Source: Bacillota bacterium (lineage in GTDB: Bacteria > Bacillota > Sulfobacillia > Fermentithermobacillales > Fermentithermobacillaceae). Taken from it: a DNA stretch of 64,000 bases. Positions 57,320 through 64,000 of this stretch are shown one piece after another (the stretch's first letter is position 1; each line of letters opens with the position of its first letter). The stretch covers positions 309,583-373,582 of the forward strand of contig JBMNKH010000004.1 of assembly GCA_050952085.1 (NCBI GenBank). Reading direction: 5' to 3'. Under the pieces are notes generated by a model, which had not been told where the DNA came from, ran no database searches, and worked only from the letters and a program-made list of their open reading frames with translations. A program made the position numbers and the translations under genes.

Positions 57320-57548
57320 GCCCAGTCCTCCTTTTCCTGAACACCCCGTCACTGAACAACCAAGCTTATCAACCTTCTGTTAGAAAGGCAATATGCATTG
57401 GATCTGCATGCCCTGGGTATCGTCCCCATGTGCTCTTCCGGCACACAAGTCTCGTCCCTATGCGCCGCTCTGGCACAGGCTCCCGGACTGTCCCCGGGCA
57501 CCATCTAATGTCCCCCAAAACCCTTATTGTCAACAGGGAAGGCCGTAT

Positions 57549-57577
57549 TTCACCGGGCTGTCCTTTTCTGATATAAT
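57549..57577 (+). promoter_or_regulatory. Putative SigA promoter of speE-speB
   Basis: TTCACC-17 nt-TATAAT with TGn extension. Confidence 0.5.
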
Positions 57578-57632
57578 TCCCTCGATGTTTGGCGAGGATA
57601 TTTGTACTAATGAACCCGGGGGTGGGATTCAG

Positions 57633-58469
57633 GTGAAAGTATGGTTCACTGAAGAATGGGTCACAGGCTTTATGATCGGGATACAGATAGAGTCTGTGGT
57701 TTACATCAAGCGCACCAAGTACCAGCACCTGGCTATTTACGATACCGTGGAATTAGGCAGGATACTCACGCTTGACAACGTGATCCAGACAACAGAGAAG
57801 TACGAGTACCTGTACCATGAAGCCATCGCACATGTTCCCCTGTTTAGCCATGAGAGCCCTGAGCACGTGTTGATTATCGGCGGAGGGGACGGCGGAACCC
57901 TCAGGGAAGTTATGAGACATCCTGAGGTAAAGCAGGCTGTAATGGTGGACATTGACGGCGACGTTATCGAAGCTTCAAAGCAGTACCTACCCCTTTGGAA
58001 CACCGGGTTCAACGATCCACGGGCCACAGTCTTGGTTGAGGACGGGCTCAGGTTCGTTGCGGAAACAGACCAGAAGTTCGATTTGGTGCTGGTTGATTCA
58101 ACAGACCCTGAAGGCCCCGGCTTAGCTTTGTTTACCCCCGAGTTCTATCAGTCCATAGGCAAGATACTCAAGCCAGGCGGTATGCTGTGTGCACAAACTG
58201 AAAGCCCGCTTGCGATGCCTGCTATGGTCAGGGAGATATATCAAAGGATAGCTAAGGTATTCCCAGTGGCCAAACTTTACACTGCCCCGGTTCCCAGTTA
58301 TCCGGGATCATTGTGGAGTTTCACTTGTGCATCGTTTGAGGCGGATCCTGAGAATCCATTGCGCGAGCCTGACGATTCGTGGAACCTGAAGTTCTACTCG
58401 CCTGAGATTCACCGCAGTATGTTTGTACTCAGCCCTAAGATTAAGCGCGACGTAGGCATTACATACTAG
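57633..58469 (+). CDS. speE: Polyamine aminopropyltransferase (spermidine synthase)
   Basis: WFTE start, YHEAIAH, IIGGGDGG, VDSTDP. Confidence 0.93.
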   Translation: MKVWFTEEWVTGFMIGIQIESVVYIKRTKYQHLAIYDTVELGRILTLDNVIQTTEKYEYLYHEAIAHVPLFSHESPEHVLIIGGGDGGTLREVMRHPEVKQAVMVDIDGDVIEASKQYLPLWNTGFNDPRATVLVEDGLRFVAETDQKFDLVLVDSTDPEGPGLALFTPEFYQSIGKILKPGGMLCAQTESPLAMPAMVREIYQRIAKVFPVAKLYTAPVPSYPGSLWSFTCASFEADPENPLREPDDSWNLKFYSPEIHRSMFVLSPKIKRDVGITY

Positions 58470-58495
58470 ATAGGATAATTTGGAGGTACATTGTA

Positions 58496-59374
58496 TTGTT
58501 CGAAGCACCTGGCACTGAATGGGTCAGCCCGCATAAGCTTCTGTGGTCGTCTTTCAACCAAAACGCACCCTGTGTAATCATGGGAGTTCCTCTAGACGAG
58601 ACTACATCGTTCAGGCCGGGTACCAGGTTTGGGCCGGCTGCAACAAGGGAAGCGTCAATGGCGCTTGAAGACTTCTCTTTGTGGCAGAGACGCACCCTGG
58701 TGGCGGAAAACTACTATGATGCAGGCGACCTGGTGCTGCCAATGGGAAACGTGGAAAACGCCCTTGGGGTGATAGAGGTTGCCGCCAGGGAGATCGTCCA
58801 CAGCGGCCGCAAGTTCATGGCAATAGGGGGAGAGCATCTCATTACATACCCGCTGGTACAGGCGGTGCTCCAGGCATATCCTGACCTTGTGGTAATACAC
58901 CTTGACGCCCACGCAGACTTGAAATCCAGATTCACCGGGACAGAGCTTTCCCACGGCACTGTAATGCGCAGGATCGTAGAATTGCTGGGACCGGGAAGGG
59001 TATTCCAACTTGGGATACGTTCTGCAACAGAAGAGGAACTGCAGGAAGCCCAAGGCCTGTCTGAAATCCATTTTTTCAATGTGATAGAACCCCTGAAATC
59101 AATAATGCCAAGGATAGACGGCCGTCCAGTATACCTTACAATAGATATTGATGTAGCTGATCCTGCGTTTGCTCCTGGGACAGGTGTTCCGGAGCCAGGC
59201 GGGATTACATCCCAGGAACTGCTGGAGGCAGTCGCATACCTCGCCGGAAGCAACATTGTAGGCGCAGACCTGGTTGAGGTGGCGCCTGCTTACGATAACA
59301 CAGGCCAGACAGGGCTGCTTGCTGCAGCTGTTGTGAGAGAATGTCTCTTACTGCTGGCTCCTGACGGGAAGTGA
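58496..59374 (+). CDS. speB: Agmatinase
   Basis: SFRPGTRFGP, GGEHLIT, DAHAD, SHGT, DIDVAD. Confidence 0.92.
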   Translation: MFEAPGTEWVSPHKLLWSSFNQNAPCVIMGVPLDETTSFRPGTRFGPAATREASMALEDFSLWQRRTLVAENYYDAGDLVLPMGNVENALGVIEVAAREIVHSGRKFMAIGGEHLITYPLVQAVLQAYPDLVVIHLDAHADLKSRFTGTELSHGTVMRRIVELLGPGRVFQLGIRSATEEELQEAQGLSEIHFFNVIEPLKSIMPRIDGRPVYLTIDIDVADPAFAPGTGVPEPGGITSQELLEAVAYLAGSNIVGADLVEVAPAYDNTGQTGLLAAAVVRECLLLLAPDGK

Positions 59375-59411
59375 AAGCAGCTGGGTAAGCTGCGAAAGGA
59401 GTTGTGCCCCG

Positions 59412-61109
59412 ATGGATGAGAGCACGAGTGTCATAAACCAAGTTAAGACTGACATTAAGAAGAGAATTGCGGAAGCCATCGACAAAGCAAGGCAAAAAGG
59501 AGATTTGCCTGGGTACGTAGAGGCTGACATCAAGATACATATGCCTGCCAAGCCTGAGCAGGGCGACTTCGCCACAGGTGTGGCAATGGCCCTGGCAAGC
59601 GAGATGAAATCTGACGGCCGGTCTGTAGCAGGCGCCATTGTACGCTACCTTTCATTGGAGGACTCGTGGATTCAGCGGGTTGACATCGCCGGCCCGGGGT
59701 TTCTGAATTTCTTCCTTAGCACCGGCTGGCTGCAAGAAGCTATGGCGGATATCTGGAAAAAAGGGCCTGTTTTCGGCTCTACCGGATACGGTGCAGGGAA
59801 GAAGATCTTGCTTGAGTTCGTAAGCGCTAACCCTACAGGCCCGCTCAACGTTGTGAATGCACGGGCGGCTGCTATCGGCGACTGCCTGGCATCTTTGCTT
59901 GAAGCTTCAGGCTACCAGGTATCCAGGGAGTTCTACATAAACGACGCAGGCAACCAGGTGGATGTGCTTGCTGATTCCCTGGAAGCGCGTTACCGGCAGC
60001 AGCTTGGCCAGGACGTGCCCTTCCCTGAAAACGGGTACCGCGGCGAATATCTCATAGACTTTGCCAAGGAGCTTATTGAGGAAAAAGGAGACAGCATCCT
60101 CGAACTCCCTGATCCTGAAAGGCATGAGTGGCTCAAGCAGTATGCTGTGTCCCGTATGGTAGGGAAACAAAAGCAGACACTCCTGGAGTACGGCCTTGAG
60201 TACGACACCTGGTTCTCTGAAAAAAGCTTGCGCGATGAGGGCGCTCCTGAAGCTACCCTGAGGCTCCTGGCTGAGAGAGGATTCATATACGAAAAAGACG
60301 GGGCCCAGTGGCTCAAGTCGACCAAGTTCGGGGATGACAAGGACCGGGTGGTGGTCAAGTCAGACGGCGAGATGACGTATCTTGTGCCCGACATCGCATA
60401 CCACAAGAACAAGTTTGAGCGCGGTTTCGACCACCTTATTGACATCCTCGGCCCGGACCATCACGGGTATGTAAGCAGGCTCAAAGCCGGAATCGCAGCC
60501 CTAGGTTACCCACCTGAAAGCCTTGAGGTGATTATTGCCCAGACGGTGAGGCTCATCAGGGGTAACCAGGTTGTGAAGATGTCCAAGCGTGGCGGCGAGT
60601 TTGTGTCCATGGACGAACTCCTGGAAGAAGCGGGCAAGGACGCATGCCGGTTTTTCTTCCTCATGCGGGCGCCGTCCAGCCACCTGGATTTTGACTTGGA
60701 CCTTGCGCGGCTCCAGTCAAATGAAAACCCTGTCTACTATGTGCAGTATGCCCATGCCAGGATAGCCAGCATCTTCAGGCAGGCAAGGCAGGAAGGGGTT
60801 GTGCCTGCATTAGGCCCAAATGAGATCGATTTTTCGCTGCTCAGGGAGCCTTCTGAAATCCAGCTCATGAAGCTCCTGGCTGCTTTCCCTGAAGAGGTGT
60901 ACGAAATCAGCCAGGCCAGGGAGCCTAACAGGCTGATAAATTACATGATGAACGTGGCTTCGGCGTTCCATTCTTTCTACACCCAGTGCCGGGTACTAGG
61001 GGAAGACAAGGAACTTAGCGCAGCCAGGCTGTATCTTGCCAGGGTGTGCCAGATAGTGCTTGCAAACGCGCTCAGGATGGCGGGAGTGTCCGCCCCAGAG
61101 GCAATGTAA
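59412..61109 (+). CDS. argS: Arginine--tRNA ligase
   Basis: EFVSANPTGP, DIAYH, KMSKR, YVQYAHAR; speE-speB-argS context. Confidence 0.95.
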   Translation: MDESTSVINQVKTDIKKRIAEAIDKARQKGDLPGYVEADIKIHMPAKPEQGDFATGVAMALASEMKSDGRSVAGAIVRYLSLEDSWIQRVDIAGPGFLNFFLSTGWLQEAMADIWKKGPVFGSTGYGAGKKILLEFVSANPTGPLNVVNARAAAIGDCLASLLEASGYQVSREFYINDAGNQVDVLADSLEARYRQQLGQDVPFPENGYRGEYLIDFAKELIEEKGDSILELPDPERHEWLKQYAVSRMVGKQKQTLLEYGLEYDTWFSEKSLRDEGAPEATLRLLAERGFIYEKDGAQWLKSTKFGDDKDRVVVKSDGEMTYLVPDIAYHKNKFERGFDHLIDILGPDHHGYVSRLKAGIAALGYPPESLEVIIAQTVRLIRGNQVVKMSKRGGEFVSMDELLEEAGKDACRFFFLMRAPSSHLDFDLDLARLQSNENPVYYVQYAHARIASIFRQARQEGVVPALGPNEIDFSLLREPSEIQLMKLLAAFPEEVYEISQAREPNRLINYMMNVASAFHSFYTQCRVLGEDKELSAARLYLARVCQIVLANALRMAGVSAPEAM

Positions 61110-61116
61110 GACTTCC

Positions 61117-61630
61117 CTGGTTGATTCTAGTACCAGGTTCAGCGCCAACCTGGTCGGTTTTGGTACCAGGTTTGCTCCTAGAGTGATCGATTTTGGTACC
61201 GGATTGGGTTGGAACTGGCGGATTTTGATACCACGTTCAGGTCAGAAGTGGTCGGATTTGATACCAGGTTCGCTTCCAAGGTGGTCGGTTCTGGTACCAG
61301 CTTGGTTGTAGGCTGGTCGGTTTTAGTACCAGGTTACGGGCAAAGGTGATGGGTTTTGGTACCATGTTTGTCCACAAGGCGGTCGATTTTGATATCAGGT
61401 TAGGCTAGAGCTGGTCGATTTCAGTACCAGGTTTTCAGCGGAAGTGATCGATTCCGGTACCAGCTTGGGCAGCAAGCTGGTCGATTTTGGTACCAGATGG
61501 GCGAGCAACTGGTCGATTCCAGTACCAGGTTTGGTGCAAACGTGGTGGGTCTTGGTACCAGATTTGCTCCTAAGGTGGTCGATTTTGATACCAGGTTGGG
61601 TCAGAGCCGGTTGATTTTCATACCACGTTT
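61117..61630. repeat. Non-coding tandem array: 16 units, 33/33/32-bp spacing, 98-bp higher-order repeat x5
   Basis: Core TGGTCGATTTTGGTACCAGGTT; TACC anchors at 61131, 61164, 61197, 61229, 61262, 61295, 61327, 61360, 61393 (TATC), 61425, 61458, 61491, 61523, 61556, 61589, 61621. Confidence 0.95.
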
Positions 61631-61717
61631 GGCTTGGAAGTGACCATTCTGAAACAATTGCGCAGGCAATACCACTGTCTGGCAGCATAATCACTGGAAC
61701 AGGGGAGACAATATGAA

Positions 61718-61762
61718 GGGTGTGTCTCAAAACTGAACGGGTATGCAATCTGAGACACACCC
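61718..61762. repeat. 12-bp inverted repeat (terminator or IS/MITE scar)
   Basis: GGGTGTGTCTCA-21 nt-TGAGACACACCC. Confidence 0.6.
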
Positions 61763-61860
61763 ACTGTTTTCTACGATATTCCGATTTCTACTATATTCCG
61801 CCAGGAAGACCGGTCAGCAACCAATATGACGAAGGAAGCATCCAGACAGACATGAACCTG

Positions 61861-63267
61861 TCATCCCCTGGATCTAGACCTGGGTGCCTTGAGCCCGTGG
61901 ATTTTCATCCGGTACTGCAGCGTCTGCCTTGGTATCCCCAGAATCCTTGCGGCCTGGGATACTGAACCGCCCTGTCTCAAAGCTTCTTCTATAGCAGCCT
62001 TTTCGTGGCTCTTGAGCTGGTTTCGTATCGAACCCTTAGATAGCGTGGTTGTGGCGGTGATACCCCTTACAGTCGGGGGTATGTGTACCAACTCAATGGT
62101 GTTGCCCCTTAAGAATGCAAGGCTTCCTTCTATAGCGTGTTCAAGTTCGCGCACATTTCCGGGCCAATCATATGTGAGGAAAGCGGACATCACTTCAGGT
62201 GATATACTGATGTTCCTTCCTTTGCCGTGCTTGCGCAAGAAGTGGGAGCACAAGAGGGGAATGTCTTCCTGCCTCTTTCTTAAAGGCGGTAGCCCAATCT
62301 CGACGACTGCCAGGCGGAAATACAAGTCAGGCCGCATAAGCCCTTGTTCCACAGCTTGCCGCGGGAGTACGCTGGTTGAGCCGATTATACGTACGTCTAC
62401 AGGCCTCTCCCTCACATCGCCAAGGCGCCGCACTCTCTTTTCCTGGATTACCCTCAGCAGTTTTGCCTGGAGCCCCAGGGGCATAGAGTCAATTTCGTCA
62501 AGGTACAAAGTGCCTCCTGAGGCCAGTTCCAAGAGCCCCGGACGGTCCTGGGCACCTGTGAACCCGCCTTTGGAGGTGCCGAACACCAGGCCTTCCAGCA
62601 AACCTTCAGGCAGGGCGGCGCAGTTCTGGGCGACGAAGGCAGATCCCGCCCTTTCTGATGCAGAATGAATGGATTGGACAACCAGCTCCTTACCAGTGCC
62701 GGTCTCGCCCCAGACAAGCACATTGGATTGGGTGCGGGCAACTTGAACCACTTGGCGCCTTACTTCCCTCATCACCGCCGATTGCCCCACTATGTCGTCT
62801 ACAGTGAATAATTTCCGGGAAATCTTAGCAGAAGCCCTGGGTCCGCCGGTGTCTTCCGCGCACTCCTTGATCCGGAGTTCCTGCCGCAAGTCGGCAATCC
62901 TTTCGGCCATTTCTTTGATCCTGGTGATATCTGTCGAAATCTCACACGCCCCGATGATCTTGTCCCCGTCTGTGATAGGGTATGTTGAATTTATGGTAGT
63001 GATTTTCTTACCCTTATAGTTAGTGAAAGTCTGCTGCTTTGCTATCTCAGGCACCCCGTTCCTGAGCACCCTGAGCAAAGTGCTTGAGTCATGGGTGAGA
63101 GACGGGAAAACGTCCAGTATATGCTTGCCCAGCACTTCTTCGGGCAAGAGGCCGTCAAACTCTGAAGCAGCCTTGTTGTATACAACGGTTACGCCTTGTT
63201 CATTTACCACATGGATACCCTCGCTGGCCACTTCCAGCACTTTGAGAAGCGCAGTTAATAGATCCAG
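61861..63267 (-). CDS. Sigma54-dependent activator, PAS-AAA+-HTH (RocR/KamR-like)
   Basis: PAS (GIHVVNEQG), GETGTGKE, NCAALP, GGFTGA, WPGNVREL, Fis-type HTH; start CTG 63267 or GTG 63240. Confidence 0.92.
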   Translation of the reverse strand: MDLLTALLKVLEVASEGIHVVNEQGVTVVYNKAASEFDGLLPEEVLGKHILDVFPSLTHDSSTLLRVLRNGVPEIAKQQTFTNYKGKKITTINSTYPITDGDKIIGACEISTDITRIKEMAERIADLRQELRIKECAEDTGGPRASAKISRKLFTVDDIVGQSAVMREVRRQVVQVARTQSNVLVWGETGTGKELVVQSIHSASERAGSAFVAQNCAALPEGLLEGLVFGTSKGGFTGAQDRPGLLELASGGTLYLDEIDSMPLGLQAKLLRVIQEKRVRRLGDVRERPVDVRIIGSTSVLPRQAVEQGLMRPDLYFRLAVVEIGLPPLRKRQEDIPLLCSHFLRKHGKGRNISISPEVMSAFLTYDWPGNVRELEHAIEGSLAFLRGNTIELVHIPPTVRGITATTTLSKGSIRNQLKSHEKAAIEEALRQGGSVSQAARILGIPRQTLQYRMKIHGLKAPRSRSRG

Positions 63268-63314
63268 GGTTCATCCTCCTCATCAGGCACAGCCTACAAC
63301 TCTCGCCGGACCGG

Positions 63315-63453
63315 CGGCAGCCTTACTATTGGCAATTACCGTCACTGGCAGCCATCCGGCTATCAGCAATCACTGCCAGGCCGGCAGCCACCTGACTACC
63401 GGCAATCACGGCCAGGCTGGCAGTTATCCCGGTCCAGGCGACTACTGCAGATC
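63315..63453. repeat. Degenerate 36-bp tandem repeat
   Basis: GGCAG-starting units at 63346, 63382, 63418 (36-bp period) plus a shorter degenerate copy at 63315. Confidence 0.7.
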
Positions 63454-63705
63454 GGTAATTCTAGTCCGTCAATCCTGCCCGGAACTGCCGGTAATTTGGC
63501 GCCTGCACATAATACACATGACCAAGATTCGGCAACCCTGACGCCGATTCCTGCCGGGATGAATGAAATCCTTGGATTATCCCTAAGAGCTGCGGCGCGT
63601 CCCACAAGGACACAAACCCCCTTACGCAGGCTTTCAACCGGTTGTTCAAGTGCTTGGAAATATCAGGTAGCAGGGGTGTTTGCTTAACGCCCGGCCGGAA
63701 CCTCG

Positions 63706-63720
63706 TGGCACGGAAATTGC
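63706..63720 (+). promoter_or_regulatory. Sigma54 (-24/-12) promoter
   Basis: TGGCAC-GGAAA-TTGC, 64 nt upstream of the kdd start, divergent from the activator gene. Confidence 0.85.
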
Positions 63721-63784
63721 GTTGATAAAGGGTATGAACGATTCGCTCGAGATGAACTACTTACTGATGACCGGAGGTGTTCAA

Positions 63785-64000
63785 ATGACAAAAGAGTACA
63801 AATGGGGATGTCCTTACGGCTGTCACAGGGTAATCGAACCTCAAGGCGTGCTGCCTCAAGCAGCGTGGAAGATAGACAATTCCCCGGAAATCCGGCGCAA
63901 CGAAATACTTATTGACGTGGAAACTCTTAACGTGGATGCTGCAAGTTTCAAACAGATGGTGTCCCAATGTGACCCAGATGCTGACGATGCAAAGAAAGAA
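63785..64000 (+). CDS. kdd: L-erythro-3,5-diaminohexanoate dehydrogenase (lysine fermentation), 5' part
   Basis: Manual translation after GGAGGT: MTKEYKWGCPYGCHRVIEPQGVLPQAAWKIDNSPEIRRNEILIDVETLNVDAASFKQM, matching the Kdd N-terminus; runs off the window. Confidence 0.85.
   Translation, partial: MTKEYKWGCPYGCHRVIEPQGVLPQAAWKIDNSPEIRRNEILIDVETLNVDAASFKQMVSQCDPDADDAKKE

Follow-up and report, generated by a model that had tools for sequence, protein, structure and literature searches.

The window analysed here, a 64,000-nucleotide (nt) stretch of the genome of a Bacillota bacterium (assembly GCA_050952085.1, contig JBMNKH010000004.1, positions 309,583 to 373,582), carries a tandem repeat array directly downstream of the arginyl-tRNA synthetase gene argS. 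The 565-aa product of argS (59412..61109, + strand), taken from the list of open reading frames (ORFs), matches the Pfam families Arg_tRNA_synt_N, tRNA-synt_1d, and DALR_1. The array (61118..61640, + strand), delineated by fuzzy core matching, Tandem Repeats Finder (TRF), and comparison of assemblies, consists of 16 units in direct orientation, each joining a 22-nt core (consensus TGGTCGATTTTGGTACCAGGTT) to a 10-11-nt linker, with its G/T-rich sense strand on the argS coding strand. The argS stop codon ends 8 nt ahead of the first core, close to the stop as an earlier note on this sequence had stated, at one nucleotide more than the 7 nt given there. Around 75 nt of unique sequence separate the array from a T-tract hairpin (GGGTGTGTCTCA...TGAGACACACCC then ACTGTTTTCT; 61718..61772, + strand). 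In a seven-species alignment, this hairpin is kept in relatives both with and without the array, which identifies it as the native argS terminator and places the array upstream of it; in agreement with the earlier note, no terminator lies between the argS stop and the array. The convergent gene beyond the hairpin (61861..63240, − strand) encodes a PAS / sigma-54 AAA+ / Fis-type helix-turn-helix (HTH) activator (Pfam Sigma54_activat, 198 bits; PAS_4; HTH_8), which lies outside the element and serves only as its right-hand boundary.

The array is built with marked regularity. A fuzzy match to the core proposed earlier, allowing up to five mismatches, recovered the same 16 copies, starting at window positions 61118, 61151, 61184, 61216, 61249, 61282, 61314, 61347, 61380, 61412, 61445, 61478, 61510, 61543, 61576, and 61608. 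The spacing between core starts is 33, 33, 32, repeated exactly five times as had been reported, i.e., five 98-bp higher-order units (33+33+32) and one extra unit, and TRF accordingly returned periods of 33, 98, and 196. Linkers of 11, 11, and 10 nt fall into three classes specific to their position in the 98-bp block, again as the earlier note described. No entry in the ORF list spans the array (the longest overlapping frames are 83 aa on the + strand and 121 aa on the − strand) and the 98-bp period is not divisible by 3, both in line with the non-coding nature already proposed. An assembly artefact, which the earlier note had named as one way its account could fail, is contradicted by the data: no 20-mer occurs twice within the array, and the 751-nt spacer between argS and the activator gene shows 0 differences across 7 independent public assemblies with identical ArgS from Logan, JGI, and ENA (4 Logan runs, one of them ending inside the array, 3 JGI metagenomes, and 1 from ENA). 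This identity also means that there is no copy-number variation at such shallow depth; no ArgS of 91-99% identity occurred in the database searched. The argS array is thus real, stable, and non-coding.

Core and 33/33/32 rhythm alike recur at ~9 other loci in the genome under study (G000, whose contigs are designated C1, C3, C4, etc.), including C1:338k (3 units), C1:434k (4), C3:89k (3), C3:276k (3), C3:350k (7), C3:377k (1), C4:101k (3), and C4:468k (14). The two other long arrays, of 14 and 7 units, follow the same cycle and use the same three linker classes (e.g., TGCTCCYAAGG-like), and the C4:468k array, upstream of cdaA, belongs to the same repeat family. A second subfamily with a 21-nt core (GAAGTGGTCAAT..GACCAGG) and a super-period of ~105 bp (33+32+40) occupies C5:5.6k, C1:465.7k, and C4:668.7k. 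The G000 arrays, argS copy included, have no common boundary sequences. At most of these loci the T-rich sense strand is co-directional with the gene reading into the array, a tendency based on crude gene calls and confounded by gene strand bias. The recurrence of core and rhythm at ~9 unrelated loci argues against any role dedicated to argS, the replication origin oriC, or sigma-54, and the array would then lack such a role at its present site; the centromere-like or oriC-related function considered in the earlier note finds no support here.

Dispersal also bears on the simplest account of such a structure, a variable-number tandem repeat born at the argS site through local, neutral slippage and unrelated to mobile DNA. 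Higher-order structure of the kind seen here is typical of block duplication, and the argS locus has no provable insertion sequence (IS) ends. However, a local origin is already contradicted by the presence of the same core, linker classes, and rhythm at the other G000 loci and in another genus, and it fits poorly with the conservation of cores over linkers and with a copy number that is constant across the 7 assemblies. We therefore regard it as very improbable.

Among 33 species-level genomes of the family Ca. Fermentithermobacillaceae, the core is concentrated in a few members: 45 copies were counted in G000, 115 in G012, and 6 in G016, whereas the other 30 genomes had at most 2 each, which we treat as background. 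The genome-wide and cross-relative search advised by the earlier note thus revealed a dispersed family, with most family genomes at background level. G012, a metagenome-assembled genome from an anaerobic membrane bioreactor, belongs to a different genus and has identical 22-mers in common with G000 (e.g., TGGTCGGTTTTGGTACCAGGTT). The core was not found in the viral contigs searched.

In G012, the repeats lie inside discrete elements that are bounded by inverted repeats and flanked by a target-site duplication. Arrays in this genome share a conserved lead-in (...cttgataccggtactggcattagg) and a conserved tail (TGGCCGGTTTTGGGGCCAGTAAtgcttttagaggggg...), and are enclosed by the inverted repeats TGTCAACGGACTACGATTCTTTCACC ... 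GGTGACAATATCACTCTCTGGTAACA, with both ends clear at loci L014 and L012. A decayed direct repeat of ~16-17 bp, CAAGATTTCCCTATTGAG vs CAGAATTTCCCTATTGCA, with identity at 14/18 positions, brackets one element of 749 bp. The tail, i.e., the 3' flank of the G012 arrays, aligns in reverse orientation with the first 160 nt of a G000 IS at 74% identity (E ~1e-20), so that the T-rich sense strand of the array is antisense to the transposase gene.

This G000 IS measures 1.5 kb and is present in ~10 copies (e.g., C1:31048-32557, C3:393637-395145, and C6:697-2205), with homologues in 11/41 relatives. NCBIfam ISNCY_2 recognises its 451-aa transposase with 415 bits (cut-off 250), its 26-bp ends start with TGT/TGC, with the end motif repeated 27 bp inside the left end, and perfect 16-bp target duplications flank 3 copies; several copies, of 1.1-1.2 kb, have internal deletions. 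G000 harbours an active autonomous IS of the same kind as that bounding the G012 arrays. The 16-bp duplication fits the definition of the ISTde1 subgroup of the IS1202 family (bioRxiv 10.1101/2022.12.17.520857).

Within G000 itself, a decayed element at C4:100341-101312 links the 33-bp units to an end of this IS: it comprises the IS left end with its subterminal repeat, ~14 units of a 53-bp repeat, and three 33-bp units. The order of 33-type units followed by 53-type units is found again at C5:5560-6160. The 53-bp palindromic repeat (ATGGTGCAC-N3-GTGCACCATTTT; C4:239007-239631, C3:366163-367251, C4:100341-101148, and ~14 more loci) also fills intact G000 elements of 625 bp and 1089 bp that have both IS ends. 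The junctions of 33-bp and 53-bp units with IS ends indicate that both repeat families form the interiors of non-autonomous IS1202-family elements. On balance, the argS array is probably an orphan minisatellite copy from a lineage-specific 32/33-bp family that is carried and spread by non-autonomous derivatives of IS1202-family (ISTde1 subgroup) elements. The earlier note had seen in it no recognisable element class; the G012 copies, placed inside non-autonomous IS1202-family elements resembling BOX and BrickBuilt, now provide one.

Under this transposon-derived account, an array-bearing element would have inserted downstream of the argS stop codon, ahead of the terminator of this gene, after which the repeat block would have expanded by duplication of a 98-bp three-unit block via slippage or unequal exchange, while the transposon ends would have subsequently decayed or been deleted. 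Its position between stop codon and terminator makes it probable that the array prolongs the 3' untranslated region (UTR) of the argS transcript by roughly 600 nt, as far as the old terminator. Super-periods at other loci are consistent with such block duplication: G012 arrays show 65 bp (33+32), 173 bp (42+33+32+33+33), and 172 bp (3.5 units and a terminator-like hairpin). The super-period differs from array to array (65, 98, ~105, 172/173 bp) and reflects the particular block that underwent duplication, the 32/33-bp unit being the sole constant.

For the argS copy in particular, the trace of a transposon is faint. The candidate is GCAGGCAATACCACTGTCTGGCAGCA (61662..61687, + strand), located 22 nt past the last linker, which matches the reverse-complemented left end of the IS at 19/26 positions (7 mismatches), and at 17/21 at the tip, oriented and placed as would be predicted for an array forming the inside of a decayed element; it is a possible, unproven IS1202-family left-end remnant. 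Orphan IS-end matches amount to only a handful genome-wide, which makes a chance adjacency to the array unlikely, at a rough estimate of ~1e-3. Several observations weigh against a transposon origin, beginning with the candidate end itself. Its local-alignment score of 26 stands at the borderline 99th percentile of random 300-nt genomic segments, and the same stretch can be partly aligned in outgroups that lack the array. No right IS end was found at the argS copy, nor was a target duplication, the array beginning directly behind the stop codon, and a BLAST comparison of the complete IS with the regions downstream of argS in relatives returned no E value lower than 0.19. At the level of the genome, no canonical G000 array lies between two intact IS ends, full-length G000 IS copies are devoid of arrays, and G012 has no detectable transposase of the IS1202-type family. 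The conservation of cores over linkers without indels is not what plain junk predicts either, and related, diverged arrays stand at the same argS site in G001, G006, and G003, which could reflect long retention at this site, hinting at function, instead of repeated insertion. Putative IS remnants noticed by eye around these three argS arrays reached only E >=0.19 in BLAST and were not used. The sequence comparison thus weakly favours an IS origin of the argS copy as the most economical inference.

The argS site has a mixed history across species. A short spacer without array follows argS in G005, G004, G002, G012, and G016, and the 3' end of the activator gene is recognisable just downstream of argS in at least G005, G004, G012, and G016. 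By contrast, G001 carries 17 units of the 21-nt subfamily at a repeated spacing of (33,32,40-42), G006 ~6 units, and G003 an array in the opposite orientation; these diverged arrays went undetected by nhmmer and TRF and were located with manual patterns. This mixed pattern points either to repeated hits on the site or to the remodelling of an old array. In G003, a different tandem repeat (ATGTAGGATGCT x 6.9; L031:392-474) fills the first 100 nt past the argS stop, and is followed by a hairpin terminator and then by the inverted array of the 33-bp family.

Conservation within the array is concentrated in the cores. Identity between units in phase with the 98-bp period is 0.80 for cores and 0.50 for linkers, while out-of-phase units give 0.77 and 0.41; zero indels were found in the 16 argS units, or in the 14- and 7-unit sister arrays. 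These figures agree with the earlier proposal that a 98-bp trimer was amplified and that its linkers then diverged while the cores were kept, and the preference for cores over linkers is the pattern which the earlier note had set against neutral slippage. Conserved core positions include the non-symmetric G6, T8, T9, T21, and T22, which makes the core an asymmetric motif; its dyad, TGGT/ACCA plus GGTACC, is weak. The core/linker contrast with zero indels exceeds the expectation for neutral decay, and the far better preservation of core and 32/33-nt spacing than of linkers points to a sequence-specific constraint. Our best guess for its agent is a DNA-binding protein, of the host or encoded by the element, for which the asymmetric cores would be head-to-tail recognition sites.

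This constraint is the foundation of an alternative in which the array is a phased, iteron-like platform. Here, a host protein or the N-terminal HTH of the IS transposase would bind each asymmetric 22-bp core head-to-tail, and selection on binding would keep the cores and the 32/33-bp register; co-option as insulators or nucleoid-organising sites, for example, is conceivable, as is a role of the arrays as an internal transposition enhancer. In its favour are a core identity of ~0.78-0.80 as against 0.41-0.50 in the linkers, a run of 16 units free of indels, conserved non-palindromic positions in a motif held in direct orientation, 22-mers that are identical between G000 and G012 despite IS sequences only 74% identical, the occurrence of argS-site arrays in four congeners, and the lack of RNA covariation. 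On the other hand, no candidate protein was identified, the array is missing at the argS site of other relatives, the super-period differs between arrays, and the core has, by inspection, no convincing similarity to the terminal repeats of the IS; gene conversion among copies could moreover mimic constraint. A resemblance of the core to the IS terminal/subterminal repeats (TGGACAGT... in GACC-type cores) extends over only 7-8 common nt and was not counted. We consider this platform unlikely as an explanation of the array. Slightly less likely still is the specific proposition that the cores are head-to-tail protein sites, bound on the internal array by the transposase HTH, which would enhance transposition or scaffold synapsis there, or by a host protein co-opting orphan arrays. 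If it held, selection on binding would explain the kept cores and register, the identical cores in two genera, and the argS arrays in several species, and the arrays would define a novel class of phased "iteron" array borne by transposons, whose elements also house a sister family of 53-bp units. Any such binding protein would make these arrays a clean natural system for the study of phased multi-site DNA recognition.

Alternatively, selection could act on RNA, with the array transcribed together with argS and its weak serial hairpins and U-tracts working as leaky terminators, barriers to 3' exonucleases, or a protein sponge. The location of the array between stop codon and native terminator speaks for this, as do the T-rich sense strand co-directional with the incoming gene at most G000 loci, three terminator-like units (ACCAGGTT-loop-AACCTGGT then CGATTTT), a same-sense terminator-like hairpin in each 172-bp unit of G012, and a + strand that folds better than shuffled sequences (z = -5.3). 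The − strand, however, likewise beats its shuffles (z = -4.9), and an excess on both strands is expected of any partly palindromic repeat. Two candidate hairpins were evaluated and rejected. The within-core hairpin (TGGT-N10-ACCA plus an outer extension) shows uncompensated variation, e.g., C4/A15 in 32/82 G012 units, and the across-linker hairpin with T-tract, which by eye had suggested "serial terminators" at units 1, 6, and 11, pairs, at nearly every position, in the same fraction of cases as shuffled partners do, with the i+2 control equal to i+1. Neither hairpin thus pairs above shuffled or shifted partners, and the compensatory changes that the earlier note proposed to look for are absent from both. 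Rfam 15 gave no relevant match at E up to 10 for window positions 60500-64000; in the G012 modules its sole match was isrK, at 17.6 bits vs a gathering score of 50, and no sigma-70 promoter was predicted in the G012 units. Orientation and context are further obstacles to an RNA-level role: a hairpin terminator stands between argS and the array in G001 and G006, the G003 array is inverted, and the cdaA copy sits in a divergent promoter region. An RNA-level element is accordingly improbable; of the argS 3' UTR RNA envisaged in the earlier note, co-transcription with argS remains plausible, whereas a role as an argS RNA sponge is unsupported.

The neighbouring activator gene raises the question of sigma-54. 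Two array segments, TGGTACCAGGTTTGCT and TGGTACCAGATTTGCT, fit the GG-N10-GC pattern (TGGYAY-N5-TTGCW), and they are the sole 2 matches in the window, as would befit an enhancer array, or a tandem series of sigma-54 promoters, on which the adjacent activator acts. Yet these matches involve only 2/16 units, 4/100 shuffles reach 2 matches as well, and the motif (TGGCAC-N5-TTGCW, GG-N10-GC) is not conserved in the G012 units. The array is also located downstream of both flanking genes, the other arrays do not adjoin activators, and relatives that keep the activator gene beside argS have no array. A sigma-54 function is the least credible of the alternatives considered here, and a role of the array as a target of the adjacent activator, which the earlier note had named for binding assays, is not supported.

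Other repeat classes were likewise compared and set aside. Repetitive extragenic palindromic (REP) sequences, their clusters known as bacterial interspersed mosaic elements (BIMEs), and STAR elements are short repeats dispersed through intergenic DNA, partly dyad-symmetric, clustered in some cases, and common at gene ends. REPs form stable, G+C-rich palindromes whose orientation alternates and are tied to REP-associated tyrosine transposases (RAYTs); STAR has no known transposon carrier. The argS array, in contrast to REPs, has only a weak dyad (TGGT/ACCA and GGTACC) and direct instead of alternating units, outer and inner positions of which pair no better than shuffled or control positions, and G000 encodes no Y1/RAYT gene: PF01797 (Y1 transposase) had no match in G000 and did match in control genomes. 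A CRISPR array (repeats of 23-47 bp, unique spacers of ~26-72 bp) is not compatible with 10-11-nt linkers in three related classes; cas genes were not searched for. A link to restriction-modification, or a site decoy, via GGTACC or CCWGG was dismissed because genome counts are as expected (GGTACC, 557 observed vs 602 expected). An association with tRNA genes was also discarded, being limited to four G012 arrays, with no G000 array within 5 kb of a tRNA gene. In these four G012 elements (L013, L018, L019, and L010), the array is located roughly 200-300 bp upstream of tRNA genes or clusters and is co-directional with them.

The closest known counterparts of these array-bearing elements are composite repeats of the MITE type (miniature transposable elements with inverted repeats). 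BOX of Streptococcus pneumoniae (boxA - boxB(n) - boxC) is similarly composite, dispersed, intergenic, and MITE-like, with variable tandem modules inside, terminal parts that resemble the inverted repeats of resident IS, transcription with neighbouring genes, and a narrow lineage (PMC3049150), and its layout is matched by that of the G012 elements (end - lead-in - n repeat blocks - end). Differences from BOX lie in the 32/33-bp unit with its rigid register and higher-order blocks, in the parent IS, which here is of the IS1202 family, in the absence of terminal modules from the argS copy, and in length, which varies among strains for BOX whereas the argS array is identical in 7 assemblies. BrickBuilt, a MITE from Porphyromonas gingivalis, also has a minisatellite between a "leader" and a "tail", small inverted-repeat ends, and many intergenic copies limited to one species, and promoter activity was shown for it (PMC4596501). 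Its units are of 23 nt without spacers, unlike the alternation of 22-nt core and 10-11-nt linker seen here, and its abstract does not tie it to an autonomous partner IS, which has been identified in the present case (PMC4596501). The G000 IS itself resembles the ISTde1 subgroup of the IS1202 family in its HTH and DDE transposase (ISNCY_2), its ~26-bp ends of TGT/TGC type, and its 16-bp duplications, and the G012 carriers use the same ends. In the family account, a term search returned no mention of MITEs or internal arrays, and "tandem" referred to tandem IS copies (bioRxiv 10.1101/2022.12.17.520857), so that internal minisatellites and MITE derivatives would be additions to this recently defined family.

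For annotation, this connection offers a common explanation of the 33-bp and 53-bp families, which have a "CRISPR-like" or "centromere-like" look, as cargo of defective IS1202-family transposons, and should stop such arrays from being read as locus-specific regulators in this uncultured digester lineage. The arrays are also substrates for rearrangement. A G016 contig (L017, C10:8500-12800) is 98.8-99.7% identical to G012 DNA and fuses the flanks of two G012 arrays that lie 8 kb apart in opposite orientation (compared with L014 at C4:100.5-105k and L018 at C4:92.2-96.5k); this arrangement is an inversion by recombination between the two arrays. Near-identity across genera suggests, for the same contig, either mis-binning or a recent transfer. 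Next to the G012 array at L013:1950-2100 is a stop-broken remnant of the N-terminus of a different HTH transposase (MSVYALEDRMRAV...), which suggests that mobile-element debris accumulates at such array sites.

Two further features flank the locus within the window. Upstream (~57390-61109), genes for a spermidine synthase and an arginase-family protein, probably an agmatinase, precede argS in an order kept in all public contigs examined, which ties arginine/polyamine metabolism to arginyl-tRNA synthetase. On the other side, where the sigma-54 activator gene and a downstream KDD_N/ADH_zinc_N gene diverge, the intervening region contains 2.1 copies of a 36-bp tandem repeat (GGCAGCCACCCGACTACCAGCAATCACGGCCAGGCC; 63347-63423), which might be the binding region of the sigma-54 activator itself.

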